Origin: Eledone cirrhosa
Taxonomy: Eukaryota
Length of the DNA stretch: 64,000 nt
Direction: 5' to 3'
Assembly: GCA_964016885.1 (NCBI GenBank)
Contig: OZ024743.1
Coordinates: 149,606,001-149,670,000, forward strand
How positions within the stretch are numbered: the stretch's first letter is position 1; each line of letters starts with the position of its first letter. The notes beneath the pieces were generated by a model. The model did not search any database and was not told the origin of the DNA. It saw only the letters and a list, made by a program, of their open reading frames with translations. Both the position numbers and the translations under genes were made by a program. This document shows positions 17,357 through 64,000 of the stretch, piece after piece.

Positions 17357-19904
17357 CTCAAAAAAGCCCTGAAAAGCTGAAAAAATGAAGAGATATGGAG
17401 AGATAGCATGCTTTCCAACAGACAAGTCTGGCAGAATGTCGGTTGACAGTCTGCCAAACTACATCCAGGCAATGCAACCCCACATGACTAACACAAGAGA
17501 AGTAATACCACAAGAGCATGAGGATAGAGAAAAAGCCCTCAATGCCCATATGGTGATGTGGACAAATATAATGCAGCCCAACAAAAGGACTGCCAACAAC
17601 TTCCAGGCCTGGAACAATGACGTGCCAGCGTTGTATGGGCTTCTAAAAGACCATAAAACGGCAGTGACCCTATCACGGGTCCACCAACACGCCCAGTCTG
17701 TGGAGCTAACATTGCTAGTAACTACAGACTTTTCTACTTCCTCTCCCTGTTCATACGCCCCATCATTGAAATGTCCCCAGATGTATGTGACAGCACGGAG
17801 GACCTCCTCAGCAGAATCGGCGAGAGTAACCGATCTAGGGACCTAACAAACTGCATAATAGGTAGTATGGATGTTGTGTCCCTGTATCCATCTATTGACG
17901 TGGATTTTGCTGTGGAGAAATGCGTAGAAATGATCAGTGAGAGCAATGTTGAGTTCCGTGGGATTGATACCAGTGAGCTGGGACTCCTACTTAAACTTAC
18001 CTATAGTAATAATTACCTAGACACATATGACCTTAGCAGCCTGTGCCCTACAAGACCAGCCAAAGGCAGACCACCTACCATTACCTCAATGGCCAAGAAA
18101 GCCTACACAGATAGATGGAACGGGTGGACCAGAACCATACGGACCCCCGAAAACCACGATGAACTAAAGAAAATGATTGCACATGCGGTGGGGGCCAGCA
18201 TAAAATTAACCCTTAAGGAACATATGTTCAAATTTAATGGAAAAACATATGCCCAAGAGGAAGGAGCAGCCGTTGGTGTTAGCATTGCAGGCGACATAGC
18301 TAACTTATTCATGGTATGGTGGAACAGTAGACTTAAACTTAAACAACAATTAGAATACCCCTTAACCCTGATAATGTACTCCTGCTACGTTGATGATATA
18401 AACATCGTAGTTAAAACACCCCCACTAGAGAACAGTCAGGAACTAGAGAAAAACACAATGGAAAGCATCCAGCAAATAGCTAACTCCATCCACCAGAGTA
18501 TGAGAGTTACTATAGACTACCCAAGTAAACACGCCAACCATCGATTACCTGTACTAGACACACAGCTCTGGTTAGATACCATTAATAACAAAAAACAAAT
18601 CCTCCATTCCCAGTATGCCAAACCCATGACTTCCAAATATCTAATCCACCGAAACTCAGCTGTTTCGGACCATACTAAAATCAACATACTGATTGCGGAT
18701 TTGGGACGGGTGATGAGAAACGTGTCCCACATGTGCAACCCCGAAGAACTAGAGAGACACATACAACACTTCATCCACCGTATGCAGTTCTCTGGTTACA
18801 ATCAGAGAGATAAAATCAGAGTGTATAGGGGAGCCAGAACCAAAGGGGAAAAATGGTAAATAATGACACAAATGGGACCTGCCCCTTGTATAGGAGCAAA
18901 TTTTGGAATAGAATAGAAAGAACTAGGAATAAGGCTAATAGAATAAACTCATGGTATGATAGCAATAAATACCAGAGTGTAATGTTCATCGATACAACCC
19001 CTAGAGGTGAATTAGCTTATAAATTTAGAAGGGCCCTAGATAAACATAAACTCAATATTAAGATAGTAGAAAGACCAGGTACCTCCATAAAAACACTTAT
19101 TAGCAAGATATACCCTTTTCAAAGACCCCCCTGTATATATAAGAAATGTATAACCTGTAAATTAAGCCCCCCTATTAACTGTAAAACTAGAAATGTAGTA
19201 TATAGCATAAGATGTACTGAAGGACAATGTAGAGACAAAAATATAGTGTACATAGGTGAGACAGCTCGTAGTGTAGGGGAACGGATAAATGAATACTGGC
19301 GAGACCTTCAAGATAGTAAAGAATCATCTGTACTCTACCAACATGCTAAAATAGAACATAAGGGTAAATTAGAGAACATAGAAATAAATATAGAATCTAC
19401 ACACAGAAAAGACGCAATGTTTAGACAAATCACAGAGGCAATAAACATAAAAGAATTACAACCAAAATTAAATAGAAAACATGAGTGGAACAGCAATATC
19501 ACAACTTACAATTAAGGACAAAATGAAAACATACACGCACATAGAACAAACAACCAACCTGTAACATGTAAATAAACAAATAAATAAACGAATATAAACA
19601 CACACAGACACCTGGATGTGGCGCATGCGCAGACTGAGCACACAACACTCACACAGAAACAAGATGGCGTAGGACAGAACAAAGGAGAGGCACAAAAACA
19701 AAGAAAATAATCCCCAATCACTGAAGAGGTCACAGAATGTGTGACGAAAGAACTTTGACAATATATAAACAACCATCTGGTTGTGGAACCAACCAACCAA
19801 CCGGAAACTTATAAATTCCTAAATTTATAAATTTATTATAATAAATTGAAGTGAAACAACTGGTGCGTGTGTTTCTTATTGGCAACATGACCCTCCCAAA
19901 GTAT

Positions 19905-19910
<6 letters not shown>
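17357..19910 (+). mobile_element. 5'-truncated Penelope-like element (RT + GIY-YIG + pLTR), tentatively Nematis-like; frameshifted
   Basis: TDKSG, LYGLLKDHK, MDVVSLYPSI, QEEGAAVG, YVDD, LPVLD; CxxC linker; NVVY..YIGETARS..R..H..E..LN; ORF pieces 17385-17660, 17771-18859, 18853-19515; ends in (AT)n. Confidence 0.93.
19716..19760 (+). ncRNA. Hammerhead motif in PLE pLTR (family F)
   Basis: TCA-CTGAAGA-G-GTCACA GAATG TGTGAC-GAAA-GAAC-TT-TGA. Confidence 0.75.
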
Positions 19911-19994
<84 letters not shown>

Positions 19995-25050: not shown

Positions 25051-25069
25051 AGACCTCAAAAAAAAAAAA

Positions 25070-25832
<763 letters not shown>

Positions 25833-27788: not shown

Positions 27789-27819
27789 TGTCTGTATGTG
27801 TGTGTGTGTATATATATAT

Positions 27820-27900
27820 ATTGTTATATTTGGGGGTGGTCATGTTGCCAATATTGCCAATAGAATAAATACACGCACCATATGATTTTCACTTTATCTT
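27820..27900 (-). mobile_element. 3' end of a PLE related to family F
   Basis: Reverse complement TGGTGCGTGT..GGCAAC-ATGACCACCCCCAAATATAACAAT-(AT)n. Confidence 0.7.
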
Positions 27901-28204
27901 TATCTTTTTTGCTTATCTTGTTTGCTTTTCCCATATATGATTTTATTAGACTCTGAATCTGTTGATTTTATTAACTCATTCATTGAACCAAACTTAGTAT
28001 CAGTTGGACGATCTGTATGTATCTATACTTGTATTTATACTCGTGTAGAAATATATGTACTTCTTCATTTAATATACAATACACTCCCTTATGCTAGGAT
28101 CAAAATTTGGCCGAATTGAACTACTTTCTAGTACTACGTAGCCAGTCATTGTCCACATTTACTACCCTCCTGTTGGTCACTTGTCACGTGATCATTCTTC
28201 CAAT

Positions 28205-30350
28205 CGCTATTGCGTAATCTCCTTAGAATATTTATCCTTTCTTCAATACATAGTCCACAAGACGGATTGCCTCTTGCGTATGTCTTGGACTTAGTGATAG
28301 CTTTCCATTGAATGGAGTAGTCTATACCTGAGTCTTCGAGGGACCTTACGTGGCTTGCGAGCTTCGTGTATGATCGTTTGTCCGGGTACCTAAAAATCGG
28401 CTGATGGTTCAGGAAGCGTTCCTTAAACCGGCCCTCCGCCATACCCACATAGGATTTGACTTCCTGTGGTTGATTTGGTCGGTTGGAAGTGACCACAGCT
28501 TCATAAACTACAGCGAGTGTTGCATTACTGTTGAATAGGACAAGCTTCAGCCTTTCAGCAAGAGCATCCTGGTGGGGTGCCGCTCTTAGGACTGTTGGTG
28601 ATGTGGGCCTTCATATTATTTACGCAGGAGTAACCTAGTTTTACTCTGTGTCTGTTAAAGATGGAGCGGTATTTGTGGCCTATGGGAAAGTGTCTATCTT
28701 AGAGGGCTAAACATTTTTTTCCTACATTAGTTTTAATGTTGAGTGAGAAGGGAAGAGAGAACGAGATAGTTTGTCTATTGTTACGAATTGTTTTCTTATT
28801 GCTGTTGTTGTTAGTGGGGGAGTAAGTAATTGGTTTCGAGAAGCCGCTGATAGCTAACGCCGTGTTATAGTAGGAGACCGCTCTGTCAAAGATTGCCTTA
28901 TTAGAGGAGAGGTTAGAGATTCTAGTACTGATATTATTTACGAAGTTTCTAAAAACAGTAGGAGGGTGGCATGAGTCCTTGTGTAAGTAATTATGTTTTT
29001 TTGTTTAGCTTATGGAAGGGTCTGAAGGTATGTGTTCGAAGGTTTAAATTAATGTCTAAGAAGTCTACGCTAGAGAGGTTGGTAGCTACTGTTATCCTAA
29101 GTCCTAACTCATTAAAAGTAGAAGTTAAATATTTTTTAAACCGGTCAGGTCGTGACTACTTTTATGGCTCGATAATTCAGACCATCGTCGCAGTATATTC
29201 CCGTGTGGAAGTCCAGGAATCTAACACGTAATATATCTAAAATAAATAAGCCAACCAAGTCGCATACGTCAGCACTGTCAATCGATCCCATGGAGTCGTC
29301 GAATAGTTCTGAAGTGGTTGACTTCTTTGCCCAGGCTAGTCCGTTTTTGATGAGGCGGGTTTTCCGGCAGTGTGCAATGATCTCCCTGTCTAAAACATGG
29401 ACGGTAGTGTAAGTGGTAGCAAAGTCCAACGCTTTGTTTAACAGGGTCTCTGAGATCGACGGGTAAAAATCTACAATGTCGAATTGCGTGAACTTCGCTT
29501 TTTTGGAGTTGAAGGAGTTAAACCACTTAATGATGGAGTCGCTGTTCTCCCACTGGGACAGGTTGGACTTGGTCCTAATGGTCTTAACTATCTTTCTAAG
29601 TATGGCCTTACTGACTAGTCCCATTTCTGTGCGTGCCGGGTTTATTAGTCTACACGTGGGATTACAAGCAAAGTCTACCTTGTGATCCTTCAGGGTGAGA
29701 AACGCCTCACGTTTAGCTAAGCATTGTAGTTTCTCATCTACCTTAAGGGCAGCAGCAAGGTCTTTGGCTTCTGTATTGATGTCGTAGTAGGCCGTAGAGT
29801 TAGCCTTCTTATATTTAGAAGTTATGGCGTTACGCGCCAAGTGGCTGTAAGTAGTGTTGTCGACTTCGTAAATATTATTGGTTTTGTCAGAAAGAACGAA
29901 AGTGTTATTGGAAGACCTAAATTTCTTAATATCATTTCTAAGTTTAGTTTGGAAGGTGTTAGAGTGTTTGTGAAAGGAAATGTTAGGTCCGCTTCGAAAG
30001 GAGCGAGTTCAGTTACCTTAGGAAGGTAGGCTCTCGATTTCAGATTGAAGGTGTTACTGGTGCCTGTAATTTTGCCGTCAAAAGCTAGGGCTCGCCATCT
30101 TAAGCGTCTAACGATATCTTCCATCTTTTGTAGGAGAAGCTTTAGGTAAACATGGTTGGGGGTATTGGGAATATTTTTCAGAGAGTAATTCAGTTCGTAT
30201 AAATCTATTCTGACGTTGTTGAGACGCAAAGTTGCGTAGGACACGAGGATATAGAGAGGGCCCACAAGGTGGAAAGCCAAACTCCCACGTGGTGAAGAAT
30301 CTGCTAAAAGCCAAACTTCCACGTGATGAAAAGAATCTGCTGACCGGTGC
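28205..30350 (-). mobile_element. Near full-length decayed PLE, Hydra-clade-like
   Basis: NYSLKNIP, RLRWRA, TLKDHK..NPTCRLINPA, FDIVDFYPSI, MGS.D.A.VCDLVG, YCDDGL (mutated catalytic motif), YVGMAEGRFKERFLNH, CGLCIEE. Confidence 0.9.
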
Positions 30351-30358
30351 TGGAGACG

Positions 30359-30391
<33 letters not shown>

Positions 30392-30399
30392 AGAGAGGA

Positions 30400-33300
30400 C
30401 CCATGAGTCCAGTAAGACATCCTCTCTAGCGGCTGGTGGCACGAATAAAAGCACCCAGTCCATGCTGTAAAGTGACACTGGTGTTAGGAAGGGCATCCAA
30501 CCAGTGTATCAATGCCAAAAACAACTATAAGCACAGCAACAAATATATAGGAACAACAAAAATATGAAGACGTCGCATCTCAGAGTTGCAACACTTAATG
30601 TTGGCACTCTCACAGGTAGATCCGGTGAAATAGTTGAGATGCTGGAGAGAAGGCTTGTGGATGTGTGCTGCGTGCAAGAGGTGAGATGGAGAGGCGCCTC
30701 TGCGAGACTAGTCGCAGGCAAACATCTTAGCTATAAGCTTTTCTGAGTAGATAAGGATGATGGGTTAGGGGGAGTAGGCATTTTCCTGGCTGAGAGATGG
30801 ATCAATAAGACAGTAGAGGTAGTTCGAGTTAATAATCGAATAATTAAGCTTAGTCAGGAGACTACTGACAATCATCTCTGCCTATGCTCCCCAAGCAGGC
30901 CTAGGCAAAGAAGAGAAAGACTGCTTTTACGAGCAACTTTTACAAATAGCCACAATGACAGAGAACGGAGACATCGTTATGTTAGCAGGGGATTTCAATG
31001 GTCATGTTGGACATCTCCAGGATGGTTACACTGGGGTACATGGTGGGCACGGTTACGGCTCAAGAAATGAAGGAGAGCGACTTGTTGAATTTTGTGATGC
31101 AAGTACACTGACTATTTGCAACACTAACTTCCAGACACCTACCAACCACCTAATAACCTACAAATCAGGCGAGCACATAAGCCAGATTGACTTCTTACTA
31201 GTTAGGCAGCGGGATAGGCAGATGGTATCAAATACCAAGGCATACCCTGGGGAAGAATGTACCCCACAGCATAGGTTAGTCGTTAGTGATATCTTAGTAA
31301 GCAAGAGATGGAATGAGACATACAGGAAGGCGTGGAGAAGAAAGGTCTGGAAGCTAAAAGCCCTTTCACTAAAATACAAATTTAGGAAAGCCCTTCAAGA
31401 TGTGCATGACGAAAAAGAAAACGATTTAGAGTCGTATGACATAGATAATAACGGGAATTTCTTACGTGACAACTTACTGCAGGCTAGTGATGAAACTTGT
31501 GGCTGGAGCAAAATTCCAACCAGACAGAGAGTGACCTGGTGGTGGAACAGCACAGTAGATAGGGCCATTAGAGACAAAAGACTAGCATGAAAGGCTTGGA
31601 AAAAGGGTGGGAGTCGAGAAGGATATACAGCCGCTAAGAGAGAAGCTAGCACGCAGGGAGGCTGAGAGTAGGAGGTTTGCCAATGTTCTACGACGGGAAG
31701 ATCAGAGGCGTGCGGTATTCCACATTGCAAGGCAGTGTGTCAATGCAAATCAGGATGTTGTTGGAGATAAATGTGTCCGGAATGATGCCGGTGCACTTAG
31801 TGTCACGAATTATCAAAAAAAGGAGGCCTGGAAATGTCCTTATGAGAGACTGATGAATGTGGAGAACGAATGGGAGAGAGAGAAATTACCCTCAGTAGAT
31901 CCGACATAGGCACCAGCTATTGAGATTGACGAATATAGGGTCGAAGAGGCGATTAAGGAAATGAAAAATGGTAAGGCTGCTGGACCGTCGGGGATAGTTG
32001 CTGAGATGCTGAAGGTGTCAGGGGACGTAGGCACTAAACTGGTTGCACGCATCATCAATTAGGCTATATATGGCGGTGTCATACCCAAACACTGGTGCAG
32101 CAGTATTCTCATAAATTGCTACAAAGGTAAAAGGGATGCTCTGGAGAGGAACAATTACAGGGGTATAAAACTGAAGGATCAGGTTGTGAAAGTGGCAGAA
32201 AGGATATTAACACAACTAATTAGAGAAAGGGTCAAACCAGATGAGATGCAGTTTGGTTTTGTGCCTGGGAAAAGTACAACAGATGCCCACTTCTTGGTGA
32301 GACAATCACAAGGGAGGTTCTTAGAGAATAATAAGCCACTATACTTAGCCTTTGTTGACCTAGAGGAGGCCTTTGATAGGGTACCCCGATCTGTCATCTG
32401 GTGGTCCCTAAGGAAACTAGGTGTTGAGGAATGGCTTGTGAGGACATTGCAAACTTTGTACGGAGGTACTCTCAGTAAAGTCAGGGTAGGAATGGAGTTT
32501 AGTGAGGAATTCCAGATACAAGTAGAAGTACATCAAGGTTCGGTCCTCAGCCTGTTCATGTTCATTATAGTCCTCCAAGCCATAACAGAGGAGTTTAAGA
32601 CTGGCTGTCCATGGGAACTTCTCTATGCTGATGATCTGGTTCTTATAGCAGAATCAGTAGAGGAGCTAGAGAATAAATTCTGGCTATGGAAACAGCAGTT
32701 GGAAGCAAGAGGACTGAGAGTGAACCAAGCTAAGACAAAAGTGTTGATGAGTAGAAAAGAGGACAAAACTCTGATTCCGTCAGGGAAATGGCCATGTTCG
32801 ATATGCAGAAAATGAACTGGCATAAATTCTATAAAATGCACACAATGCAGATTCTGTGTACACAAGAGATGTAGTGGGATAGCAGGAAAACTAACAGGTA
32901 GGGAGAAATACGTATGCAGTAGATGTACAGGGAAATTAGAGAGTAGAAGTCGCATTGATAGACACATTTTTCAAATGCAGGCGGGTGCTATAGAAGTGGT
33001 GGATAGCTTCCGGTACCTAGGAGATTAGATTATCATGGGAGGGGGTGTTCCGAGGCTATAGTATCTAGAATAAGGACGGGTTGGAAGAAGTTTAGGGAGC
33101 TGCTTCTGCTGACGAAGAAGGGTGTCTCCCTGCGTACGAAAGGCCGGTTGGAGATGCAGGACATGGCAGATTATCATGGGAGGGGGTGTTCCGAGGCTAT
33201 AGTATCTAGAATAAGGATGGGTTGGAAGAAGTTTAGGGAGCTGCTTCCTCTGCTGACAAAGAAGGGTTTCTCCCTGCGTACGAAAGGCCGGTTGTATGAT

Positions 33301-42168: not shown

Positions 42169-42244
42169 AAAAATAGTTTAATTAGGAATAAGTATAAATT
42201 AGTATAAATAAGTATTAGTTAGTATTTAGTTTTAGTTTTAAGTT

Positions 42245-44280
42245 TTTTAATACAGGGATGTTCTGGAGGATGGTGTCAAAGGCCTCATTGTTGAGGGGGT
42301 TGTGTGTGGAGATGTATGGAAGAGCTTTTAGTTTCGGTTGATTAACTTTAGGGTGTCTAAGGTCCTGGGTACTGAGTTTTAGGGCACGTTGGATTCCATT
42401 GTCAATTAGTGATGCATGGTAGTCCCTGCTTATGAGTGTGTCCTTTATTTCTTGTAGACGTAAGGTGTTTTTATTGGAAACTATAGTACAGATTCTCCTG
42501 GCTAAGTTGAAGGGAATATTAATTTTAACGTGTCTAGGGTGGCATGAATTGAAAGGAAGATATTGCTTGGAGTCTGTGGGCTTGTAGTATATGTCTGTTT
42601 CTATTTTTTTTGTTATGAATCTTAATGAGGATGTCGAGGAAGGGGAGTTGTTGATGGCTGTATTCTATTGTAAAATTAATATTCGTGTTGAGCCCATTTA
42701 TAAGGGTGTGAAATTCTTTAAGTTTCTAGATGTTTTCGTGCCAAAGGAGGAAGCAGTCATCTAGATATCTCTTCCAGTTCTTTTCTATGTGTAAGTGTTT
42801 CCAAATTTGTTTAGTACTTTAGTGTAGAGGGTGATTTCCAGGTATCCCATGACTAGGTTGGTATAAGTGGGGGCCGTTTTCGTTCCCATAGCGGTCCCAG
42901 ATTTCTGCCTGTAGAATTTGTTATTGAAAACAAAGTAATTATTCTCCAAGATAAATTTGAGTTCTTCTATCACGAATTCTTTTTGGGAGTTCATTGGGGG
43001 TAATTATCCAGCCAGAATTGGATAGCTTCTATTCCTATGTTGTGGGGGTTGGGGGGTTGGAGTATAGGTTGACTACATCGAACGTCACTAGTAGGGTTTG
43101 TTCAGTAAGGGGTATATTAGGGAGGTGGTTGAGCATATCTAGGTCGTCCCTTATGTAGCTTTTAATGTGTTTGAGAAAAGGCTTCAGAAGGGTATCAATG
43201 AAGTTGCTAAGGCGGTGGGTTTCGCAAGCGGGGCCTGCTATTATAGGTCTTAATTTGAGATCATTAGGTGAGGGGACATTGATGACTATGTCTGTGGCTT
43301 CCTTGTATGCCTTACTTATTAGTTCGCTTTTATGTACTTTAGGGATACCGTAGAAAAGGCTGGATTTACTTGTGAAGTCTGTGATTAAGCTGAATTCCTT
43401 GTTAGTGAGTCTTTCTTTGTATTGGTTGATCAGAGGTTTTAGGTTTCTCATATTTTTCTGTTGATTGTAGTGTTCAGCCTTTTCGTAGTGTGTTTCGTTT
43501 TACAAAGTGGGGAGCGTTAAGTTGATATAGAATTCTGTCTCCATTAGGACTACTGTACTCCCTTTATCAGCCTCTTTAATTGTAATAGTTCTGTCGGTTT
43601 TTAATCTATTTAATTCTTCCCATTCTTTCTTATTGAGGTTTGGCTTGTGTTTTTGTCTGTGCAAGTGTTGGTAAGGGAAGATTGTGATGTTTTCACAGAA
43701 TTCGTCCAGGATTTTATTTCTACCTTTTGATGGGGTGTTAGTTGCTTCTATTTCTGGCTAATGATTCATCCTCTCTGTACTGGTCGAATAGTTCTTCACT
43801 GAGTCGTAACTTTCTACAGTATTCTGTGATGTCTTCCTTCATTTCATAGTAGTTTGGACGTAGGGAAGTCGGTGTGAATTTAAGACCTTTGGAGAGTAAG
43901 TTGATAAGGTTGGGAGTTGGTTCTGCACTAGTTAAATTGATAATTTTTATTACTCTCGGTTTCTCCTCCCTGTCTTGTGTTATTTCGTTTGCCTGTATCT
44001 GTGTGTTGTGTCTAAAAAATGGTTGTTAAGTGGTCTCATGTGTTCGTTATATTCCTTGTTGTAAAATGTGTTCGGGTTCGTGGTTGTGGATTGAATGAGG
44101 TGTTCCTGTATTGCGAGTATGGATGTGTGTTTCTATGTGCCATGTTGGATTGTGGTGTTATAGCTGGCCTACGTTGCTGGTTGTATCGTGCGGGGTGGGT
44201 TTGTTGTGTATTGTGGAAGCGAGAGTTGAGAAAATGGAAATTACCTTGCTGTCGCCTTGTGGTGGGGAAGTTGTTACGTC
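42245..44280 (-). mobile_element. Decayed PLE RT, tentatively Neptune-like; endonuclease missing
   Basis: KGLKFTP, IKEADKG, FYGIPKVHK, RPIIAG, FDVVNLY, QKSGTAMG..AP, RYLDD, LPFLD, YYKPT, SCHP; bracketed by AT-rich sequence and (AT)n. Confidence 0.9.
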
Positions 44281-46364: not shown

Positions 46365-49300
46365 GTAAAACGGTAGATGTCTGTCTGTGTGTGTGTATGA
46401 TTTTTATGCATTTCCACATTTCTCTACCGATTTTGATGATTTCTTTTTCAATGTGCTCCAAATTTACCAGGGCAGGTCAACGCGTAATTACGTTTGCCAA
46501 AAATGTCCTGCTTCTATGAAAAAAAATCGATAAAACTAAATACATGCTGTAACCCTCTCTCTTACACGCTTCATTCCTCTCACTACCCTCAATCTCCTCC
46601 GCAACTCTCTTTAAAAGGTTACTGCCTCCGTCTCTGAAGGAACGCGACACAAACTTTGATAACCATCTCTCTTACACGCTTCATTCCTCTCACTACCCTC
46701 AGTCTCCTCTGCAACTCTCTTTAAAAGGTTACTGCCTCCGTCTCCATTACAGTTTAGAACAACGACAAATCTTCTCTCTCTATAATAGATCATTCACCCT
46801 CTTCGTTCGTCATACATCAAATATCAAAATTTAAAAAGCCTATAACACTAAATACATACTGCTCTCTCAACGTTACATTTTACATCAAATAACAAATATT
46901 CAAAAGCAACATATGAATTTATAAAACAACAAACGTAACAATAACGACGCTTAAGCGTTCATTTACTTGAATCTCAACAAAGACATTATATTTTATTGTT
47001 GTCCTTTTTGTAATTTTTCTTTCTTTTTTTTTTCTCAATATGAGACAAAAAATTAATGAGAAAACTTTTTTAACGAACATCCGATTTCGATGATTTATTT
47101 TCCAGTGTGCTCCAAAATAACGCCCCTGTTTACGCTCTTTTGTGCTATAACTCAGACAGGCTTGGCTTACAGGTTTGACCTATTATTTGACGTGCATTCT
47201 TCATAGATCTTACTTAGTACTTACTTTCCACTTACTAACCGTTCAATTGAAAGTTTTGGCTACTCCCCCTTTCATGCTCCATTACCTGCATAAATATTTA
47301 CGTGTTCGGTTCTGCTACAATATAGTACTCACTTTAAACTAATTCAAAGTTCATTTGAAAATTTTCTCTACCAAACACATTCTTTGAATCTACGGTCATG
47401 CCACCCAAAAAAAGACCACGACTTAGTCGCCAAACTAAAGCTGCTTCTACTGCCAAACGAAGAAGAGCTACAGAGTTGTCCGTAGAAAAATTGACTCGGT
47501 TGTCACAAATTGCAACTCGAAATGCAATTACCCGGGCAACCGAGACAGAAAAAAAGAAGAGCATTCGGCTTTTCAGAACTGTAGTTGCACGTGCAGCGCA
47601 AACTGATGAACAACATTCTCGACGACGAAGCAAAAATGCGGCCTCTACCGCTGCGGCACGTTACGGTGAGGACGAAGAACACCGTTACAGTCGATGACGA
47701 AGAGATGCCGCCTCAACTGATGCGTCACGTGCTGCCGAGGACGAAGGGCAGCGTTCCAGACGTCAACGTACGGACGCCGCTTCAACAGCTTCCGTTCGCG
47801 CATCAGAGACTGCGCAAATTCAATTACAAAGGCTAAACGCCAACGCACTCCGCAGGAGTGCTAAACGAGGTACACAGAGGATCAGTTGCACTCAGTGGTC
47901 TCATAAGACTTTCCACTATGACCCAACAGTAAACTATGCACTGATGCCAGAAGTTCAGATTGGATCCATGTCTGTCATTTGCCAATATTGTCGGGCAAAA
48001 AAATGGCCTGGGGAGACTTCAGGGATGTGCTGCTCTAACGGCAAAGTGAAACTGCCTCCTCTACAGGAACCACCACAACCTTTGAAGTCTCTACTGACCG
48101 GTGTCACAGCGGAGTCGGAACACTTCCTTCGATGATCCAGGAGATACAACGCTGCCTTCCAAATGACCTCTTTCGGAGCTAACATCATACGCGAGGACGG
48201 CTTCATGCCTACCTTTAAAGTTCAAGGACAAATTTACTACAGAATCGGTTCGATACTGCCCACGACAGACGGACAGCTCTAGTTCCTACAGCTATACTTT
48301 GGCAATGACTATTTGGACCAAACGGAATGACGCGCTTCAATTTCGCCTGGCACAGACATGAAAATTCTGTTGCAAATCCAGAGAATGCTGCACAAAAACA
48401 ACAACTACATTCGCAGTTTTAAATGCGCATTGGAGGCTGCTCCGTTGCCAAATTTTGCTGTTATAACCGACGCTGACAGAAAACCACCAGGCACCCACGC
48501 CAGACGTTTTAACACTCCCAGGTGCAATGAAATAGCTGTGCTTCTTCATGGAGAACAGTACAACAAGCGGGACATCATACTTCAGTGTAGGGACAATAGT
48601 CTGCAACGGATCAGCGAGACGCATAGGTCCTACGACGCATCCCAATATCCCATACTTTTCCCATTCGGTGACGACGGATACCACTTTGGAATTCCTTTGT
48701 GCAACAGCAACAAAACTGTTTCCTCTATGCAATTCTACACCTACCGATTCATGGTCCGCGAATGCTGCTTTAACCAACTCCACCGTGCAAAAGTACTCTT
48801 CAACCAGCTTGCTGTAGACGCGTGCGCAAAGATGGAATCTGAAAGGCTGTGCTACATAAGGAACAATCAAGCACGCCTTCGTTCGGACAGCTACATTCAC
48901 TTACAGGATGGAGTAAGGAAGGACGTCGATCCCGAGAACCTAGGAAAACATTGTATCCTTCCGTCAAACTTCATTGGGAGTCCCCGATATATGAGTGAAC
49001 GCACACAGGATGCTACGGCAGACCGGATCTCTTCATCACTTCAACATGCAACCCTAAGTGGAATGAAATTACCGCGGAATTATTCCCCGGACAAAGGGTG
49101 TCAGACAGACACGATCTTACGGCACGAGTCTTTCACTTGAAGTTGACAAAACTTATTGAACTCCTAAAATCAGGTAAGGCCTTTGGACCTGTTAGGTGCT
49201 ACGTATACACCGTTGAGTGGCAAAAGAGAGGCCTGCCACACGCTCACCTACTCATTTGGCTGATAACGAAAATCAACGCAAGCAACATTGACAGCATCAT

Positions 49301-52136
49301 TTCAGCAGAAATACCCGACCCAAAATTGGACAGAGAACTCCACAACATCGTCACTGATCACATGGTTCATGGGCCATGCGGAAACGATTTCAACATGAAT
49401 TCTCCATGCATTAAAGAAAGAAGGTGCACCAAGAGGTATCCTAGGCCATTCCTCCGAGAAACTCGGACGGGTGGCGACGGTTATCCATTATACCGCCGTA
49501 GGGAGCCAGCGGACGGAGGAATTGTTGCGAAAACACCACATCACAACGTCAACAACCGGAGGATTGTACCCTACTGCCCACTTCTGCTTAAATTGTTTAA
49601 CGCCCACATTAACGTTGAATACTGCCACTCGTCAAATTGATAAAGTACGTCTGCAAGTATATCAATAAGGGGTCCGATGCTGCGTCCTTTGGTCTTAAAT
49701 GGAGAAAAACCGAGACGAAGTAACTCGATACCAGGTCGGCCGAAACATCAGCAGCAATGAAATGTTCTGGCGATTCTTCCACTTTGCAATACACCATAAC
49801 TACCCCCCAATCAAACAGTTGGCGGTGCACCTTGAAAACGGTCAAAGAGTCTACTTCACCGCCTCCTCCGCTGCTGAGATAGCAGAGAAACTCAAGGACA
49901 CCACACTTACGGCATTTTTTAAGTCATGCCGAAACGATCCCTTCGCCAAGACCATCTTCTACTCTCAGGTGCCATCATACTACACATGGAACACAGATAA
50001 CAGAATTTGGTTAAGAAGGGTGAAAGGACAACCCGTCGAGAGACATCCAGACATTAAAATGTCCCCTACCCTTGGGAGAGTGTACACCATTCATCCTAAC
50101 CAACAGGAATGTTTTTATCTCCACCTTCTACTGCATGAGGTGGTAGGACCGATATCTTTCGACGATCTGAAAGCAATCAACGGAGAGCTTTGTACTTCAT
50201 TCCGCGCAGCCTGCCTTACACGGGATCTACTGGAAGATGGCGCTCAGTGGAATGCGACATTGGCGGAGGTAGCTACAATACGCTCAGCGCGAACTCTTCG
50301 GCAACTCTTTGCGGCGATACTGCAGACATGCGAGTTAAGCGACCCTGCATCCTTATGGGACAAATACAAAGAGGACCTTTCCGATGACTACATACACCAA
50401 GGACAACTGCTACTCCCTCATTCCATCGTACGACTCAGCGACGAATTCTTCAACAATGCTCTCATTGACATCGAGGACATAATCCTAACTGCTGGCGGAA
50501 ATGACCTTCCATTCTATGGACTGCCAAAAGTTCAGCGAACGGGCTCCGACAAACTTCCGACGGGCATAATTCAGGAATCTGCCTACGACGTCCACGCCCT
50601 CGAACTGTTCATCAACGAAAACGAGCCGAAATTGTTGCAGGACCAACGGCAGGCGTATGACACAGTTTGCACTTCCATTCGTCAACGCAGAGCAGGTATC
50701 TTCTTTTTGGACGCACCAGGAGGAACTGGTAAAACATTCGTCAATAAACTTCTCCTCGCCAAAGTGCGACAGCAGAAAGGAATCACTCTGGCTGTGGCTT
50801 CTTCTGGCATTGCCGCAACTCTGCTGCCCGGAGGTAGGACAGCTCATTCAACACGACTTCAGACGACACAATAACCTGCAACATCACCAAGGACTCTGAC
50901 AAAGCTGAAGTCTTGAAAAGATGCCACCTAATTGTATGGGACGAATGCACAATGGCTCATAAAGGGTCCCTTGAGGCGTTAGACAGGACCCTACAAGACA
51001 TCAGGGAATGCAACCGGCCGATGGGAGGAGTACCTCTACTGCTGTCTGGCGATTTTCGACAAACTCTTCCAGTTGTTCCAAAAGCCACCAGGGCCGACAC
51101 TGTGGGGCTTGCATTAAGTCATCTCCCCTGTCGCAGGAAGTGACAATCCTGACCCTCACAACAAACATGGGAGCCCAACTGCTCGGCGACCACTCAACAG
51201 CTGACTTCTCAAAGGACCTCTTAACAGTTGGTGACGGCACTGCACCTTCAGATGCAGCTGGAGAATGGCAGTCTCGCAAGTAGGCACCGTTGTCGACACT
51301 GTTGACGACCTCACAGCCTCGGTCTTTCCCGATATGGCGACAAACTACAAAAACACGAGTTGGCTATGCGATAGAGCCATATTGGCTCCACAAAATGTCT
51401 CAGTTGCAAAAATCAATGAGGACCTTCTGCAACGCATTCCTGGAAACCCCCGTACCTACAAATCTGTGGACAAAGATGAGGTTGACGATTTTCCAACAGA
51501 ATTCCTCAATTCCTTGGACCTCTCTGGACTGCCACCTCATGAACTGCGTGTCAAAGTTGGGACTCCAGTGATGCTGTTGAGGAACCTGGAACCACCGCGT
51601 CTCTGCAACGGAACACGGTTAGTGGTAAGAAACCTCCTGCCGCATGTAATTGAAGCCACAATTCTCACGGGCTGCGGCGCTGGAGAAAACGTCTTCATAC
51701 CCAGAATACCATTAACTCCATCAGGTACGGAAAACCCCTGTACTCTGCGCCGACTTTCCCGTTAAACTTTGCTTCGTGATGTCAATCAACAGGTCCCAAG
51801 GCCAAACGCTATCAACGGCAGGCCTGCATTTAGCCCAGCCGTGCTTCTCACACGGCCAATTATACGTCGCATGCTCAAGATTAGGATGCAAGCAGAACTT
51901 ATTCATACTTTTACCCAAAGGCAGAACAAAAAATGTGGTCTACATAGAGGTGTTGTGACTCTTCTATTCAGCACCACTGCAGTCTTGCCGGTCTGACATA
52001 TAGTGAGTAGATGCTATTGTATATTTTCAAACTTACCCGTATTTACTTTCAATGCCTTAATATTCATAATTGAGTGGAATCATTAAAAGTACTTTAAAGC
52101 AATTAAACTCCGAGCAACGCCGGGCACTTCTGCTAG
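46360..52136 (+). mobile_element. Helitron, formerly autonomous
   Basis: RepHel pseudogene; 3' CCGAGCAACGCCGGG-CACTTCTG-CTAG|T; 5' boundary lost in (AT)n. Confidence 0.93.
47398..51958 (+). pseudogene. Helitron RepHel (Zn finger, HUH Rep, PIF1-like helicase), multiple stops and frameshifts
   Basis: CQYC..CCSNGK, PDLFIT.TCNPKW, VEWQKRGLPHAH, KYINKG, DAPGGTGKT, WDECTM, GDFRQ, INRSQGQ, HGQLYVACSR. Confidence 0.93.
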
Positions 52137-52168
52137 TATATATATATATATGTGTATATATATATGTA

Positions 52169-55100
52169 TCTATATATACAAATCTGAGGATGTGTGTGTT
52201 AAGGTTTGTAACGTATGCACGTCCACAATTTCCAACGGATTCTATTCAAAGTCGGAACAATTATTGCTTTTGGTCAGGAAAAGGTCATGAGGCAAAGGAA
52301 AATTTCAAATCCATCAACAATAAGGGCAAAAATCGATCATGATCATTCCCCCTCTCTATAATTTAACTTCTTTGCTCTCTCTGTCGCTCTTCACTCCCTA
52401 TATGACAACACTGTAGAGAGAGAAACAGTGTGTTTGATCAAATGGAGCGTTCCGTATATTCCCTCTCTCTATAAGTCAACTGCTTTACTCTCTCTGTCGC
52501 TCTTCACTCCCTATATGACAACACTGCAGTGGAGCGTTCCGTATTGACATACGGCTTATCTGGGGCATTTTCAATCGGCTTATTGCAAATAACAACCCGC
52601 AAAATAACACTTCATATAACAGATTAATGCTATAGACATATGAATCAGAATGTAACCCGTGAACTTTTTCCTGGGCAAAATTATTCGAACAGACATGACC
52701 TCATTGCCAGAGTGTTCAAACTGAAACTGGCTAAACTCATGGCTTTAATCAAAAAGGGTCAGGTATTTGGGGCTGTAAAATGTGACATGTTCACCGTCGA
52801 ATGGCAAAAACGAGGGCTGCCACATGCTCACATTTTGATTTGGTTAGCTGATAAAATCAATTCAAATGCCATAGACAGCTTCATTTCGGCTGAAATCCCT
52901 AACCCAGCAACTGACCAGGAATTACATGACATCGTCAAAGCTAACATGGTCCGTGTGTGTTGGGTTCTAATGAGCATCACACGTGTCTGAAAGGGGGGTC
53001 GTGCAGTAAGGGATACCTAACAAAATGTGTTGACCAGACTCAGACTGGTGGCGACGGGTACCCCATGTACAGGCAGAGACGGCCCGAGAACAGTGACTTC
53101 ACCACAACAGTAAAGGGAGGTCAAGTCGACAATAGATGTGTGGTCCCTTACGTCCCGCTTCCCTTGAAGATGTTCAACGCCCACATCAATATTGAGTTTT
53201 GCAACTCCGTCAAGTCGATAAAATACATATGCAAATATGTAAATAAGGGCTCTGATGCCGCAATGTTCGTATTTCAAGCTGAAAATAGCAGGGACGAGGT
53301 CACAGAATACCTGGCGGGGCGGTACATCAGTAGCAATGAAGCTTTTTGGCGCCTATTTTGTTTACCCCTACACCAACGGCACCCCGCCATCGTACAGCTT
53401 GCGGTACATTTGGAAAATGGGCAAAAGGTTTACTTTACGGACCAAACAGCCACCAAGTTGGCCGCCGATCCGAAAGAGACCACTCTGACGGGTTTCTTCA
53501 AACTTTACCAGTTCGATACATTTGCGCAAACAATTGTGTACCCCCAGGTTCCATCCTACTTTATATGGTCGAAAAACACTTGGATGCGAAGAAGTCAGGT
53601 CAGGCTGTTGAAAAACATCCTGGTGTAAAATTTGACAGCTGTCTTGGAAGTACCCCCCAAGTCAGCATGAGTGCTTTCATCTCCGCCTTCTTCTGCATGA
53701 AGTTGTAGGCACACAAAGTTTTCAGGACCTCAAAACTGTTGATGGAGAAATATGTGATACGAAGACTGCTTTAAGCGAGGTCTTTTGGAAGATGATTCGC
53801 AATGGGATTCCACTTTAGCAGAGGGTGCTTTGTTGAAATCACCTAACCTAAAGGTCTACGAGAACTCTTTGCCATTTTGCTTCAAAAGTGTGAATTGGGT
53901 GATCCCACCCCCCAATAAAAAACGGACCCCCCCCCCCCAATAAAAAATGGACCCCCACCCCCCCAAATAAAAAACGGATCCCCCCTAAATAACGGATCAC
54001 CTCCTTATAAAAACCGGACCCTTCTCCCCCCCCCAAATAAAAAACGGATCCCCCAAATAAAAAAGTGAGCTCACCCCAATAAAAACCGGATCCCCCCAAA
54101 TAAAAAACAGACACCCCCCAATAAAAAACCGAGCCCCCCCCAATAAAAAACGGATCCCACCAAATAAAAACGGACCCCTACCAATAAAAAAACGCCCCCA
54201 CCCCCATAAAAAACGGATACCCCCCAAATAAACCCCCATCCACCCAATAAAAAACGCACCCGATCCAATAAAAAACGGACACCCCCAAATAAAAAACGGA
54301 TTCCCCCATAAAAAACGGCCCCCCCCCAAATAAAAAAGGACTCCCCCAATAAAATAAACGGACCCCCCCAATAAAAAACGGACCCCCTATAAAAAACGGA
54401 CACCCTCCCAAATAAAAAACGCCCCCCCCCCCATAAAAAACGGACCCCCCAAATAAAAACGTCTCCCCCCCCCCCACATAAAAAAACGCTCCTGGGGGTA
54501 CCGGAAAAACATTTGTAACGAAATTTGAATCTCGTTAAGATTCGTCAGGAGAAAACAAAATGCGTTGTCCGTTGCATCGTCCGGGATCGCTGCTACATCT
54601 GCCGGGAAGCAGGACAGCACATTCAATCTTTAAACTCCCTTTGGATTTAGTAAAAGCTGAGACACCAACATGCACTATCAGCAAGAGTTCACACAAAGCT
54701 CTGGTTCTCAAAAGATGTTGCCTCATTGTTTGGGATGAGTGCACAATGGCACACAAGGGTGCCCTTGAGGCATTGGACGAGACCCTGAAAGACATTAGGG
54801 ATTCTGCGGCTCCTATGGGTGGCGTAACCCTTCTGCTATCAAGGGATTTTCGGCAAAAGCTGCCTGCATCCCCAAAGGGACAAGAATTGAGGAAGTGCGT
54901 GCCTGCCTTAAGTCGTCCATGTTGTGACTCCAGGTGAAGAGTTTTTATCTGAGCACAAATATGCGTGCTCATTTGTATGGTGAGAAAATGTCTGCAGCAT
55001 TTGTTCAGAACATTTTAGCACTTGGTGAGGGCAAGGTCCCTGCGGATGACAAGGGGCTGTCCCATTATGCTAATAAGGAACTTGCGTCCACCAAAGCAGT

Positions 55101-55773
55101 GCAACGGTACTCGCATGGTCGTCAAGTCACTAACACCCCACTTGATTGAGGCCACCATTGTAACGGGGTGCGGAAGAGGGGAGAATGTTTTCATTCCAAG
55201 GATGAACCTTTTCCCCTCGGCGTCAGATATCCCGTTCGATTTCCGGCGATCCCAATTCCCGGTGAGACCATGTTTTGCCATGTCCATTAACAAGTCACAA
55301 GGGCAAAGATTGTCGGTGGCGGGCATCCATTTGGGGGAGCCATGCTTCTTGCATGGCCAACTTTATGTTGCCTGTTCCCGCGTAGGGAGCAGGAATGAAC
55401 TTTTTGCTTACACTCCTCAAGGGATGACACGCAATATCGTCTACAAAGAGGTGCTATAGATGTTGGTGCAGGTGTTAGAGCTCTGCCGTCTGGAACACTA
55501 TTTCCTGGTAGGGTATCCCATGACAGACAGATCTGACACCCAGCGGCATCAGGGCCACAATCTTGCAACTTTGATCTACTAAATTCGCTATTGGAAGATT
55601 ATTAACCCATCATTGATTGACCAAAATACTAATTGGTTCGTAACTTTTAATAACCGCTTCAACTGCTTTATGCACTTAATTGATAAGCTTATTCGCTTTC
55701 AAGCCACGTTTACCTGTATGTAACTTTTCATAGCAAATGAACAAACCCGAGTAACGCCGGGCTAAACTGCTAG
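52169..55773 (+). mobile_element. Second Helitron, internally deleted (RepHel pieces 52640-53900, 54485-55459)
   Basis: 5' A|TCTATATATAC; VEWQKRGLPHAH, YICKYVNKG, APGGTGKT, AMSINKSQGQ; 3' CCCGAGTAACGCCGGG-CTAAACTG-CTAG|T. Confidence 0.92.
53903..54490. repeat. Degenerate ~20-bp tandem array, consensus CCCCCCAATAAAAAACGGA
   Basis: About 29 units with variable homopolymer lengths, inside the Helitron. Confidence 0.9.
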
Positions 55774-59414: not shown

Positions 59415-59489
<75 letters not shown>

Positions 59490-59495
<6 letters not shown>

Positions 59496-60617
59496 ATACT
59501 TTGGGAGGGTCATGTTGCCAATAAGAAACACACGCACCAGTTGCTTTCACTTCAATTTATTATAATAAATTTATAATAAATTTATAAATTTATAAATTTC
59601 TGGTTGGTTGGTTGGTTCCACAACCAGATAGTCGTTTATACATAGTCATAGTTCTTTCGTCACACACTCTGTGACCTCTTCAGTGACTGGGGATTCCTTT
59701 CTTTGTTTCTGTGCCTCTCCTTTGTTCTGTCCTACGCCATTTTGTTTCTGTGTGTGTGTTGTGTGCTCAGTCTGCGCATGCGCCACATCCGGGTGTCTGT
59801 GTGTGTTTATGTTCATTTATTTATTTGTTTATTTACATGTTACTGGTTGGTTGTTTGTTCTATGTGTGTGTGTGTTTTCATTTTGTCCTTAATTGTAAGT
59901 TGTGATGTTGCTGTTCCACTCATATTTTCTATTTAATTTTGGTTGTAATTCTTTTATGTTTATTGCCTCTGTAATTTGTCTAAACATTGCGTCTTTTCTG
60001 TGTGTAGATTCTATTTTTATTTCTATGTTCTCTAATTTACCCTTGTGTTCTATTTTAGCATGTTGGTAGAGTACAGATGATTCTTTACTATCTTGAAGGT
60101 CTCGCCAGTGTTCATTTATCCGTTCCCCTACACTACGAGCTGTCTCACCTATGTACACTATATTTTTGTCTCTACATTGTCCTTCAGTACATCTTATGCT
60201 ATACACTACATTTCTAGTTTTACAGTTAATATGGGGGCTTATTTTACAGGTTATATATTTCTTATCTATACATGAGGCTCTTTGAAAAGGGTATGTCTTG
60301 CTAATAAGTGTTTTTACGGAGGTACCTGGTCTTTCTACTATCTTAATATTGAGTTTATGTTTATTTAGGGCCCTTCTAAATTTGTAAGCTAATTCACCTC
60401 TAGGGGTTGTATCGATGAACATTACACTCTGGTATTTATTGCTATCATACCATGAGTTTATTCTATTAGCCTTGTTCCTAGTTCTTTCTATTCTATTCCA
60501 AAATTTGCTCCTATACAAGGGGCAGGTCCCATTTATGTCATTATTTACCATTTTTTCCCATTTGGTTCTGGCTCCTCTATACACTCTGATTTTATCTCTC
60601 TGATTGTAGCCAGAGAA
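59490..60617 (-). mobile_element. PLE 3' arm (GIY-YIG ORF 59889-60617 + pLTR), family F
   Basis: Reverse complement of ~61050-62178; ends in (AT)n. Confidence 0.93.
59644..59688 (-). ncRNA. Intact type I hammerhead motif (family F)
   Basis: Reverse complement AGTCA-CTGAAGA-G-GTCACA GAGTG TGTGAC-GAAA-GAAC-TA-TGACT. Confidence 0.85.
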
Positions 60618-60618
60618 G

Positions 60619-62238
60619 ACCCCTTAACCCTGATAATGTACTCCCGCTACGTTGATGATATAAACATCGTAGTTAAGACACCCCCACTAGAGAACAGTCA
60701 GGAACGAGAGAAAAACACAATGGAAAGCATCCACCAAATAGCAAACTCCATCCACCAGAGCATTAGAGTTACTATAGACTACCCAAGTAAACACCCCAAC
60801 CATCGATTACCTGTACTAGACACAGAGCTCTGGTTAGATACCATTAACAACAAAAAACAAATCCTCCATTCCCATTATGCCAAACCCATGACTTCCAAAC
60901 ATCTGATCCACCGAAACTCGGCCGTTTCGGACCATACCAAAATCAACATACTGATTGCGGATTTAGTACGAGTGATGAGAAATGTGTCCCGAATGTGCAA
61001 CCCCGAAGAACTAGAGAGACACATACAACACTTCATCCACCGTATGCAGTTATTTGCCTACAATCAGAGAGATAAAATCAGAGTGTATAGAGGAGCCAGA
61101 ACCAAATGGGAAAAAATGGTAAATAATGACATAAATGGGACCTGCCCCTTGTATAGGAGCAAATTTTGGAATAGAATAGAAAGAACTAGGAACAAGGCTA
61201 ATAGAATAAACTCATGGTATGATAGCAATAAATACCAGAGTGTAATGTTCATCGATACAACCCCTAGAGGTGAATTAGCTTACAAATTTAGAAGGGCCCT
61301 AAATAAACATAAACTCAATATTAAGATAGTAGAAAGACCAGGTACCTCCGTAAAAACACTTATTAGCAAGACATGCCCTTTTCAAAGAGCCTCATGTATA
61401 GATAAGAAATGTATAACCTGTAAAATAAGCCCCCATATTAACTGTAAAACTAGAAATGTAGTGTATAGCATAAGATGTACTGAAGGACAATGTAGAGACA
61501 AAAATATAGTGTACATAGGTGAGACAGCTCGTAGTGTAGGGGAACGGATAAATGAACACTGGCGAGACCTTCAAGATAGTAAAGAATCATCTGTACTCTA
61601 CCAACATGCTAAAATAGAACACAAGGGTAAATTAGAGAACATAGAAATAAAAATAGAATCTACACACAGAAAAGACGCAATGTTTAGACAAATTACAGAG
61701 GCAATAAACATAAAAGAATTACAACCAAAATTAAATAGAAAATATGAGTGGAACAGCAACATCACAACTTACAATTAAGGACAAAATGAAAACACACACA
61801 CACATAGAACAAACAACCAACCAGTAACATGTAAATAAACAAATAAATAAATGAACATAAACACACACAGACACCCGGATGTGGCGCATGCGCAGACTGA
61901 GCACACAACACACACACAGAAACAAAATGGCGTAGGACAGAAAAAAAGGAGAGGCACAGAAACAAAGAGAGGAATCCCCAGTCACTGAAGAGGTCACAGA
62001 GTGTGTGACGAAAGAACTATAACTATGTATAAACAACTATCTGGTTGTGGAACCAACCAACCAACCAGAAATTTAGAAATTTATAAATTTATTATAAATT
62101 TATTATAATAAATTGAAGTGAAAGCAACTGGTGCGTGTGTTTCTTATTGGCAACATGACCCTCCCAAAGTATAACAATATCGGTTTCAACACACGATTTC
62201 AGATAAAGAATCTTGCTAAACAAATTCAGAAACGAAAT
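60619..62238 (+). mobile_element. 5'-truncated PLE (uninterrupted ORF 60636-61778 from YVDD through GIY-YIG) + pLTR + tail
   Basis: YSRYVDD, LPVLD, CITC, NVVY..YIGETARSVGERINEH; highly similar to 18357-19910. Confidence 0.94.
61980..62024 (+). ncRNA. Hammerhead motif (family F)
   Basis: AGTCA-CTGAAGA-G-GTCACA GAGTG TGTGAC-GAAA-GAAC-TA-TAACT (one stem I mismatch). Confidence 0.8.
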
Positions 62239-62333
62239 ATATATATATATATATATACATAGATATATGTATGTATATATATATGTGTATATATACACAT
62301 AAATATATGTATTTATATATATATATATGTACA

Positions 62334-62399
<66 letters not shown>

Positions 62400-62519
62400 T
62401 GTATATATATGTACATATATGTATATATCTGTATATATATGTATATATATGTATATATATACACATAAATAAAAATATATATATGTATATGTATATATAT
62501 ATGTGTAGATATATGTAGA

Positions 62520-62596
<77 letters not shown>

Positions 62597-62660
62597 ATAT
62601 ATATATATGTGTGTACATATATGTATATATGTATATATGTACATATATATATATATATAT

Positions 62661-63208
62661 GTAGCAGCGATGAATTAGTTTTGCGAGGTTTTTTATATGA
62701 AATCGTGTGTCGAAACAAATATTGTTATACTTGGGGAGGGTCATATTCGTGTAATATTGCCAGAATTAATAACAGAACACACTCACTGTTTGGTTGGTTT
62801 TCGCTTCTCGCTTCTGTGCCTTTTATATCGGTAATCTAACTTACTCGGTCCTCAATGTTGCCATTGACTGACCGACGGTAAAAAATAATACAGATACAAT
62901 ATAGACACAAACACATATATATAGTTTATCATAAATCTTTCGTTGCACATCTGCAACATCGTCAGTGGTGCTATATTTTCCTCCTGTTGTATTGTATGTC
63001 TACGCCATTTTTATGTCTATATTGTGTCTATGTTGTATCTGTATTATTTTTGACCGTCGGTCAGTCAATGGCAGCATTGAGGACCGAGTAAGTTAGATTA
63101 CCGATATAAAAGACACAGAAGCGAGAAACGAAAACCAACCAAACAGTGAGTGTGTTCTGTTATTAATTCTGGCAATATTACACAAATATGACCCTCCCCA
63201 AGTATAAC
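62661..63208. mobile_element. Fold-back of PLE-related ends: arms ~62724-62910 and ~63022-63208
   Basis: Reverse-complement arms, both ending in ATGACCCTCCCCAAGTATAAC; (AT)n on both sides. Confidence 0.85.
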
Positions 63209-63303
63209 TATATATATGTAGATATATGTATATATATATACAGTATATGTACATATATATGTGTACATATATGTATATATGTATTTATGTATATATGTAC
63301 ATG

Positions 63304-63354
<51 letters not shown>

Positions 63355-63638
63355 ATATGTATATATATGTATATATATACATATATGTGTACATATATGT
63401 ATATATGTACACATATATATGTATATATGTATATATGTACACACACATATATATATATGTACATATATGTATATATGTATATATGTACACACACATATAT
63501 ATATATGTACATATATGTATATATATATATATATGTACATATATGTATATATATATATATGTACATATATGTATATATATACATATGTATATATGTATAT
63601 ATGTACACATATATATATATATATGTACATATATGTAA

Positions 63639-63669
<31 letters not shown>

Positions 63670-63880
63670 CATATATATATATATGTATATATGTATATAT
63701 ATGTATATATGTATATATATGTATATATGTATATATATGTATATATGTACATATATGTATATATATATGTATATATATGTATATATGTACATATATGTAT
63801 ATATATATATACATATATATTATATATATATATGTACATATGTACATATGTATATATATATGTACATACGTATATATGTA

Positions 63881-63922
<42 letters not shown>

Positions 63923-63924
<2 letters not shown>

Positions 63925-64000
63925 AATGTAAGTATGCATGTATACGTACATACATATATGTATACAGACGTACAGTAGCATGCACATATATATATATATA
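63923..64000 (-). mobile_element. Tail of a third family H copy
   Basis: GTATACGTACATACATATATGTATACAGACG matches ~45453-45483. Confidence 0.5.

Follow-up and report, generated by a model that had tools for sequence, protein, structure and literature searches.

The window, by which we mean the whole stretch of 64,000 nucleotides that was analyzed, lies on contig C4 of the 3.0-Gb genome of Eledone cirrhosa and harbors several Penelope-like elements (PLEs). A 5'-truncated arm of a family A PLE at 60614..62240 (+), which is 95-98% identical to intact family A copies, comprises the C-terminus of the reverse transcriptase (RT), the thumb, a CX4CxxC linker, the GIY-YIG endonuclease (EN; stop codon at 61776-61778), the 3' UTR/pLTR and a long tail. 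Based on its sequence and on the folding of stem II, a putative minimal type I hammerhead motif was located at 61980..62024 (+) with its core at 61985; stem I of this copy has one mismatch. Assuming the hammerhead consensus and its numbering, cleavage would presumably occur after position 62019, 135 nt 5' of the ATG. An Rfam scan of the window gave no hammerhead among the matches listed (150 of 235), which were miRNA matches only, driven by microsatellites and below the gathering score. The tail at 62155..62240 (+) corresponds to nucleotides +1 to +86 of the element's own open reading frame (ORF), and its final ATAT is common to the tail and to the adjacent (AT)n array at 62237..62660, an array that also flanks the long end of a family B element. 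The inverted partner arm of the family A insertion, at 59488..60612 (-), has its ATG at 59513, a hammerhead with an intact stem I at 59688-59644, and a short end that passes into (AT)n at +26. Both family A arms are 99.3% identical over 1,123 nt and form one inverted insertion.

On the other side of the array, a family B arm at 62661..63011 (-) consists of a partial pLTR with a hammerhead core at 62965, an ATG at 62744 and a long end at about +83, and its inverted partner at 63024..63208 (+), with the ATG at 63188, has a short end at +21 that runs into the AT array at 63209-63964. A separate 5'-truncated family A copy at 17395..19912 (+) contains RT, EN and pLTR (hammerhead core at 19721, ATG at 19887) and has a short end at +26, and a decayed A-related pLTR fragment with a hammerhead remnant at 25068..25284 (+) ends at +21 into (CT)n(AT)n. 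At 27818..27903 (-) lies a stub of family C, a third, older and related family, formed by a pLTR end with its ATG at 27843 and a short end.

The preliminary description had reported seven such ends carrying the peptide MTLPKYNN or a variant of it, and all seven were found where it had placed them, including those at 62155 (+) and 62744 (-), which differ over 25 codons by 11 substitutions (8 at third positions, 6 synonymous) and no indels. The seven are not independent, given that 59513 (-) and 62155 (+) belong to one inverted insertion and 62744 (-) and 63188 (+) to another, and the decayed copy at 25264 is indeed present but carries ATC instead of ATG. The end at 27843 is not the tail of the neighboring PLE; it belongs to the family C stub of about 85 nt, which adjoins that unrelated PLE and whose anchor has 56 matches in the genome.

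Other repeats were also seen. Fragments at 28146-30508 (-) and 14609-15541 (-) match the Hydra clade as described in PMC8557442 in having DKT, an SCPH motif, a linker of the form CxCX5C and a CxxC that precedes the EN glutamate. A PLE-like RT fragment with the motif YGIPKVHK at 42215-43499 (-) lies outside the MTLPKYNN families. Further hammerhead-like cores (CTGATGA...GAAA) at 8789, 58463, 58614, 15986 and 4244 belong to a different repeat, those at 58463 and 58614 forming an inverted pair. Several frames at 47359-55459 encode what we take to be Helitron-like Rep/helicase fragments. Elsewhere in the genome, a family A copy on contig C72 (L031) has a hammerhead core region in its downstream pLTR that is apparently duplicated locally.

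Classification of the elements

By their architecture, rather than by an RT tree, these elements are assigned to the EN+ PLEs of the Neptune/Nematis type, whose traits are given in PMC8557442, PMC3846280 and PMC4209133. A single ORF encodes an RT followed by a C-terminal GIY-YIG domain, with the motifs DKSG, YPS, YVDD, VYSIRC and YIGET. Support from Pfam was weak (RVT_1 with an E-value of 2e-4 on a window fragment and no match on full proteins), and a sequence search of the PDB gave weak RT matches only (E-values of 0.056 and 0.17). The CCHH motif of the EN is visible in the translation as two cysteines after VYSIR and two histidines downstream, and a CX4CxxC linker starts at residue 1077 in family B and 1102 in family A. 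The pLTRs derive from partial tandems, an inverted 5'-truncated arm is present, and the tail occurs on one end only in 49 of 51 inverted pairs. A predicted minimal type I hammerhead is found in the pLTR of families A, B and C, where the core and stem II are present and an unpaired base precedes stem II, as described in PMC4209133. A bias toward microsatellites is evident, as most 3' ends and 6 of 11 non-inverted 5' ends lie at (AT)n. An assignment to the Penelope/Poseidon clade was discarded due to the Cys-rich RT-EN linker, and one to Naiad/Chlamys due to the C-terminal EN and the hammerhead motif.

The likeness to Neptune/Nematis elements extends to the single ORF with RT then GIY-YIG, the CX2-5CxxC linker, the microsatellite bias, the minimal hammerhead in the pLTR and the partial tandem and inverted structure; in contrast to their tails of 30-40 nt, the tail here measures about 60 nt (about 45 nt for one family B sub-site), and complete arrays of up to 3+3 units occur. 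The Poseidon element PAc from Anolis carolinensis (PMC11167929) similarly ends within the start of its ORF, the gap between its two starts equals the tail, its targets are rich in AT, and cutting and extension take place on both strands. However, PAc belongs to the Penelope/Poseidon clade, and its starts are reported from around nt 111-118 of the ORF, within a stem-loop that lacks homology to the cut DNA, whereas the sites described here lie at about +26 and +84-86 and match the target over 2-4 nt of AT, and folding revealed no stem-loop at them. Pen2a_Av from Adineta vaga (PMC3846280) has the first 12 codons of the ORF in its pLTR and a tail that extends to codon 22 on one inverted pLTR; it is represented by one copy, whose tail measures 31 nt, whereas tens of thousands of ends are available here, which makes the rule of one short and one long end countable. 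Non-LTR retrozymes and the proposal of PLE circles (PMC4209133; PMC7761336; bioRxiv 10.64898/2026.07.22.740005) share with our elements the spacing of type I hammerheads by one unit, the tandem arrangement of genomic copies and a circular RNA put forward as template. Retrozymes are non-coding, 150-300 nt long and reported as circles, whereas here the unit is autonomous, coding and 4.1 kb long, and a circle is suggested by genomic DNA copies only.

The ORF start at the 3' ends

Exact anchors of 25-26 nt ending at the ATG gave 24,350 matches in the genome for family A and 7,193 for family B; reversed control anchors gave none, so that the recurrence is not due to chance. The proposal that the tail is the start of the element's own ORF proved correct, since MTLPKYNN opens intact RT–GIY-YIG ORFs of 1,206–1,235 codons in families A and B, in frame with RT and EN. 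Locus L065, for example, has an unbroken frame of 1,206 codons leading from MTLPKYNN over DKSG, YVDD and the CX4CxxC linker to YIGET in a unit of 4,078 nt, and the intact frames of family A (1,227-1,235 codons) also start with MTLPKYNN. Among 56 frames of at least 1,150 codons with YVDD in the fetched loci, 51 start in this way, one starts with MTLSKYNN, one has a methionine six codons earlier and three are frameshifted in the first codons; these loci were chosen with an N-terminal protein query and the count thus reflects continuity with the RT rather than the survival rate of the N-terminus. Among named homologs, the one closest to the RT-EN region is a protein from Octopus vulgaris (68% identity), and the distant homologs P0013 and P0020 (about 43% identity) have a similar peptide motif near their N-termini. 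In L065 and L190, ORF codons of about 250-430 form a long Asn-rich stretch of low complexity whose length differs among copies and which resembles the N-rich inserts of Adineta PLEs (PMC3846280).

Purifying selection on the tail, also anticipated, is indicated by a dN/dS of about 0.2 for codons 1-28 in the comparison of family A with family B. Synonymous divergence between the families was 0.44 in codons 1-28 versus 0.67 in the rest of the ORF, and with uncorrected P-values of 0.03-0.07 this is only a hint at RNA-level constraint. Codons 6-9 had been thought to be a conserved site shared across families; a similar peptide motif is retained in distant relatives, and the same P-values leave constraint on the RNA itself unsupported. 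Folding at both start windows revealed no conserved RNA structure (z of -0.24 and 0.39).

When 121 ends were scored with anchors upstream of the junction, 60 fell into a short window (+19–32), 60 into a long window (+67–87) and one was an internal deletion, so that 120 of 121 lie within two windows. Codons 6-9, where the ends had been placed from the seven sites, account for one window; the second, at +67 to +87, is equally used. Ends of family A are at +26 (19 ends) and +85-87 (25 ends), and those of family B at +26, +69-71 and +84 with a few at +75-79, so that family B has two long sub-sites. Diverging inverted pairs combine one short and one long end in 49 of 51 cases, the other two being long with long and none short with short. 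After removal of 15 pairs from loci that had been chosen for a long tail, 35 of 36 pairs were short with long (P of 5e-10), the sole exception lying inside a nest of insertions, and a hand count of junction listings covering partly the same loci gave 38 of 40. No rule tying the long end to the longer arm was seen in the inverted loci compared. A tail at one end only has been described (PMC8557442; PMC3846280), and counts of this rule were not found in the accessible portions of these papers. It should be said that the tail as ORF start (PMC3846280; PMC11167929), the two internal RT start sites within the ORF (PMC11167929) and a possible circular template (PMC4209133) have all been published previously.

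Each main end site has 2-4 nt of alternating AT that merge with the flank, in agreement with the earlier idea that microhomology at codons 6-9 primes cDNA synthesis, although these codons are one of two windows and junctions without any match occur, namely at +21 and +81-83, where ends have little or no AT match and are also found on non-AT targets. As a determinant of the site, AT microhomology fares less well: in family B the longest match, the 5-nt ATATA at +47-51, is joined to (AT)n in 26 copies, whereas a 2-nt match at +70-71 is so joined in 599, an approximate ratio, as the two 24-nt probes differ in anchor length and the second matches one of two variants at its site. Microhomology as the sole determinant was therefore rejected. 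From the use of weak matches and the match-free ends we conclude that the window is set by position and that AT pairing likely picks the exact base within it. Most 3' ends run into (AT)n, and since 6 of 11 non-inverted 5' ends also adjoin (AT)n, the target predates the insertion in at least some cases; de novo synthesis of (AT)n by the RT is thereby disfavored, and the RT may extend an existing (AT)n array. When contigs from sequencing runs were aligned to two loci, no empty-site joint was among the matches listed. In runs X1, X3 and X4, one contig connects position +152 of the ORF with position -50 of the pLTR (L190:999 to 4935; L201:3982 to 7903); with a shorter side of 25-26 nt only, this joint could represent a short tandem derivative of about 200 nt.

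Head-to-tail arrays and 5' ends

A young subfamily of family B, in which many frames measure about 1,217 codons, forms full head-to-tail arrays. It came to light in a protein search in which 150 of 2,667 candidates were scored; exact read-through patterns matched just 4 and 3 copies owing to the copy-specific bases in them. At least two units were counted by hand in 14 of 133 arms, and three of these 14 have three. The C6 locus has three full units in each inverted arm without any arm-specific substitution among the full units, and most of its units show singleton variants or length differences of 1-3 nt. In an alignment of 51 units from 14 multi-unit loci and 15 solo copies, the median number of substitutions per unit pair was 1 within loci (36 pairs, 10 of them without any substitution) versus 9 between loci (1,239 pairs, some of which differ by 0-1). 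Twenty-four locus-private substitutions, spread over 11 of the 14 loci, occur in every full unit of their locus, and lineage alleles, i.e., alleles common to several loci, were fixed within arrays in 38 cases and mixed in none. The junction of one 143-nt deletion has exactly three matches in the genome, which are spaced by 3,991 nt and lie in successive passes of one arm; it is absent from the other arm, which has five private substitutions in common with the first. This pattern points to one template reread three times and to a sibling RNA for the other arm. In 16 solo loci, 30 private variants (one locus accounts for 16 of these) were shared by every overlapping copy, and eight were present in one copy. 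Every unit of the arrays L171-L172 and L174-L175 carries an identical premature stop or frameshift, which suggests mobilization in trans.

Some loci depart from a single template. At C3_90M a variant of both full units is absent from the upstream partial unit, at C1_181M one allele is common to the minus arm and the upstream partial unit of the plus arm (the switch at this locus maps within the ORF and not at the pLTR), and L194 has one mixed allele. In family A, with a median divergence between loci of 3.4% in coding sequence, the upstream partial and downstream units differ by 3.9-7.5% in 4 of 11 loci, and L162 and L240 look chimeric.

Among about 35 5' ends in a first set of arms, a hand count placed 5 between -251 and -195, near or just upstream of the hammerhead. 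This cluster was not repeated in a second set of 40 upstream regions, of which 38 were mapped and one ran into another full unit. In the second set 27 of 38 5' ends were joined to the inverted arm, none of 37 was found at 15 nt or less from the predicted hammerhead cut, and 36 of 37 lay beyond it. Arm lengths fit a constant drop-off (KS P of 0.60) with a chance of passing a unit of 0.19 (CI 0.05-0.59). Homogeneous arrays, private variants and the distribution of 5' ends together bear out the earlier suggestion of a template that is longer than one unit or circular, and the units of the young arrays were, judging from their variants, likely copied from one monomer. Use of private variants of PLE arrays to infer the template was not found in the accessible literature, in which subscription journals are poorly covered.

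Candidate mechanism and its alternatives

On balance we favor rolling reverse transcription of one unit-length RNA, which has most likely been circularized at its hammerhead sites. The more complete proposal, in which the element's own hammerheads give a 4.1-kb RNA circle for rolling-circle reverse transcription by an asymmetric pair of RTs, which would each use a separate circle and would start on the two strands of the (AT)n target from fixed sites some 60 nt apart, seems to us as apt to fail as to hold. A transcript from upstream to downstream pLTR would be cut at both hammerheads and ligated, which would put EN, pLTR and ORF start on one continuous template. Both strands of the (AT)n target would be nicked by the GIY-YIG nuclease, as the flanks suggest, and cDNA would begin in the short window on one target 3' end and in the long window, about 60 nt apart, on the other, the exact base in each being chosen by 2-4 nt of AT pairing. 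The end positions are observed, and the presumed priming has a precedent in vitro (PMC11167929). Each enzyme would then pass through pLTR, EN and RT and go round again until random drop-off, so that the product may be a short fragment, a partial tandem or as many as three full units, and both cDNAs would finally be joined head to head. The two arms may use different RNA molecules, and switches between sibling RNAs appear to happen. A circle as template for more-than-unit reverse transcription has been a tentative proposal since 2014 (PMC4209133), and circles and oligomeric transcripts have been described (PMC6765202). However, cleavage in vitro was low (PMC4209133), hammerhead mutations had no effect on the (short) insertions obtained in vitro and no RNA-seq reads ended at the cut (PMC11167929). 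By inspection, stem I of the family B hammerhead has 2 bp only. Short reads joined at the hammerhead would be undiagnostic, since the ligated cut sites would, from the anatomy of the element, rebuild the ordinary pLTR sequence.

Homogeneous arrays and tails would equally be expected if the RT started within the ORF start of a linear monomer, reached the RNA 5' end and, in each round, used pLTR homology for one jump to the 3' pLTR of that RNA or of a partner, like retroviral strong-stop transfer. Such a jump would agree with the template switches of chimeric loci and with the weak 5'-end cluster that the first set of arms showed between -251 and -195, and ribozyme activity would be unneeded, as in PMC11167929. 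Yet it would have to be nearly perfect in every round, with none of 37 5' ends at the cut and 36 of 37 beyond it, the arm lengths fit one drop-off rate, and the switch at C1_181M lies inside the ORF and not in the pLTR; few or no stops at the pLTR favor the circle, even if DNA copies separate the two incompletely, and we regard strand transfer as unlikely. A single round of copying from a linear read-through RNA of existing tandem arrays, a scheme outlined for PAc (PMC11167929), has in its favor that full arrays are present in the genome and could be transcribed and that unprocessed RNA functions in vitro (PMC11167929). Copying alone would only shorten arrays, however, and should transmit unit-to-unit differences, in conflict with lineage alleles mixed in 0 of 38 cases and with own variants in every unit at 11 of 14 loci; also, the assembly holds no parent with the thrice-repeated deletion, although such a parent could sit on an unassembled haplotype, and this route is distinctly improbable.

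Direct repeats invite unequal crossing-over, and arrays might have arisen apart from cDNA synthesis by this process or by gene conversion between pLTRs, by nested insertion, in line with the explanation of tandem arrays by new copies inserting into old ones (PMC6765202), or by assembly duplication. Chimeric family A loci and the 10 of 36 within-locus pairs lacking substitutions are what these processes might leave behind. Independent insertions, however, would mix lineages, which was seen in 0 of 38 cases, three separate pLTR regions cannot share one deletion event, and at the C6 locus the 3+3 units lack arm-specific substitutions among full units while most carry singletons or length differences of 1-3 nt, making such an origin very improbable. 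We give still less credence to the suggestion (PMC8557442) that the two end positions mark staggered cuts by an endonuclease in an element-derived DNA intermediate instead of RT starts. One long and one short end would follow automatically from such cuts, and both sites are AT-rich like the target; against this, RT starts were mapped to tail ends in vitro (PMC11167929), the ends spread over several bases with two long sub-sites in family B, and a few junctions duplicate the last bases of the element, as expected for slippage at priming.

How PLEs rebuild their pLTRs and what role their hammerheads play are stated open questions (PMC8557442; PMC7761336). The genome contains one family that is very young and has many intact copies, and the private variants of its arrays record the template of each insertion. 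What appears new, as far as the accessible literature shows, is the genomic evidence for rereading of one monomer. The earlier proposal of a circle becomes testable on this active family, the young intact copies being a natural substrate for direct tests. If true, the reading of a 4.1-kb circle would give the PLE hammerhead a function and would provide one mechanism for pLTRs, tails and inverted arrays. The RTs of PLEs are the sister group of telomerase, and a process in which one RNA is copied again and again onto a 3' end of simple repeats would bear on the origins of telomerase.
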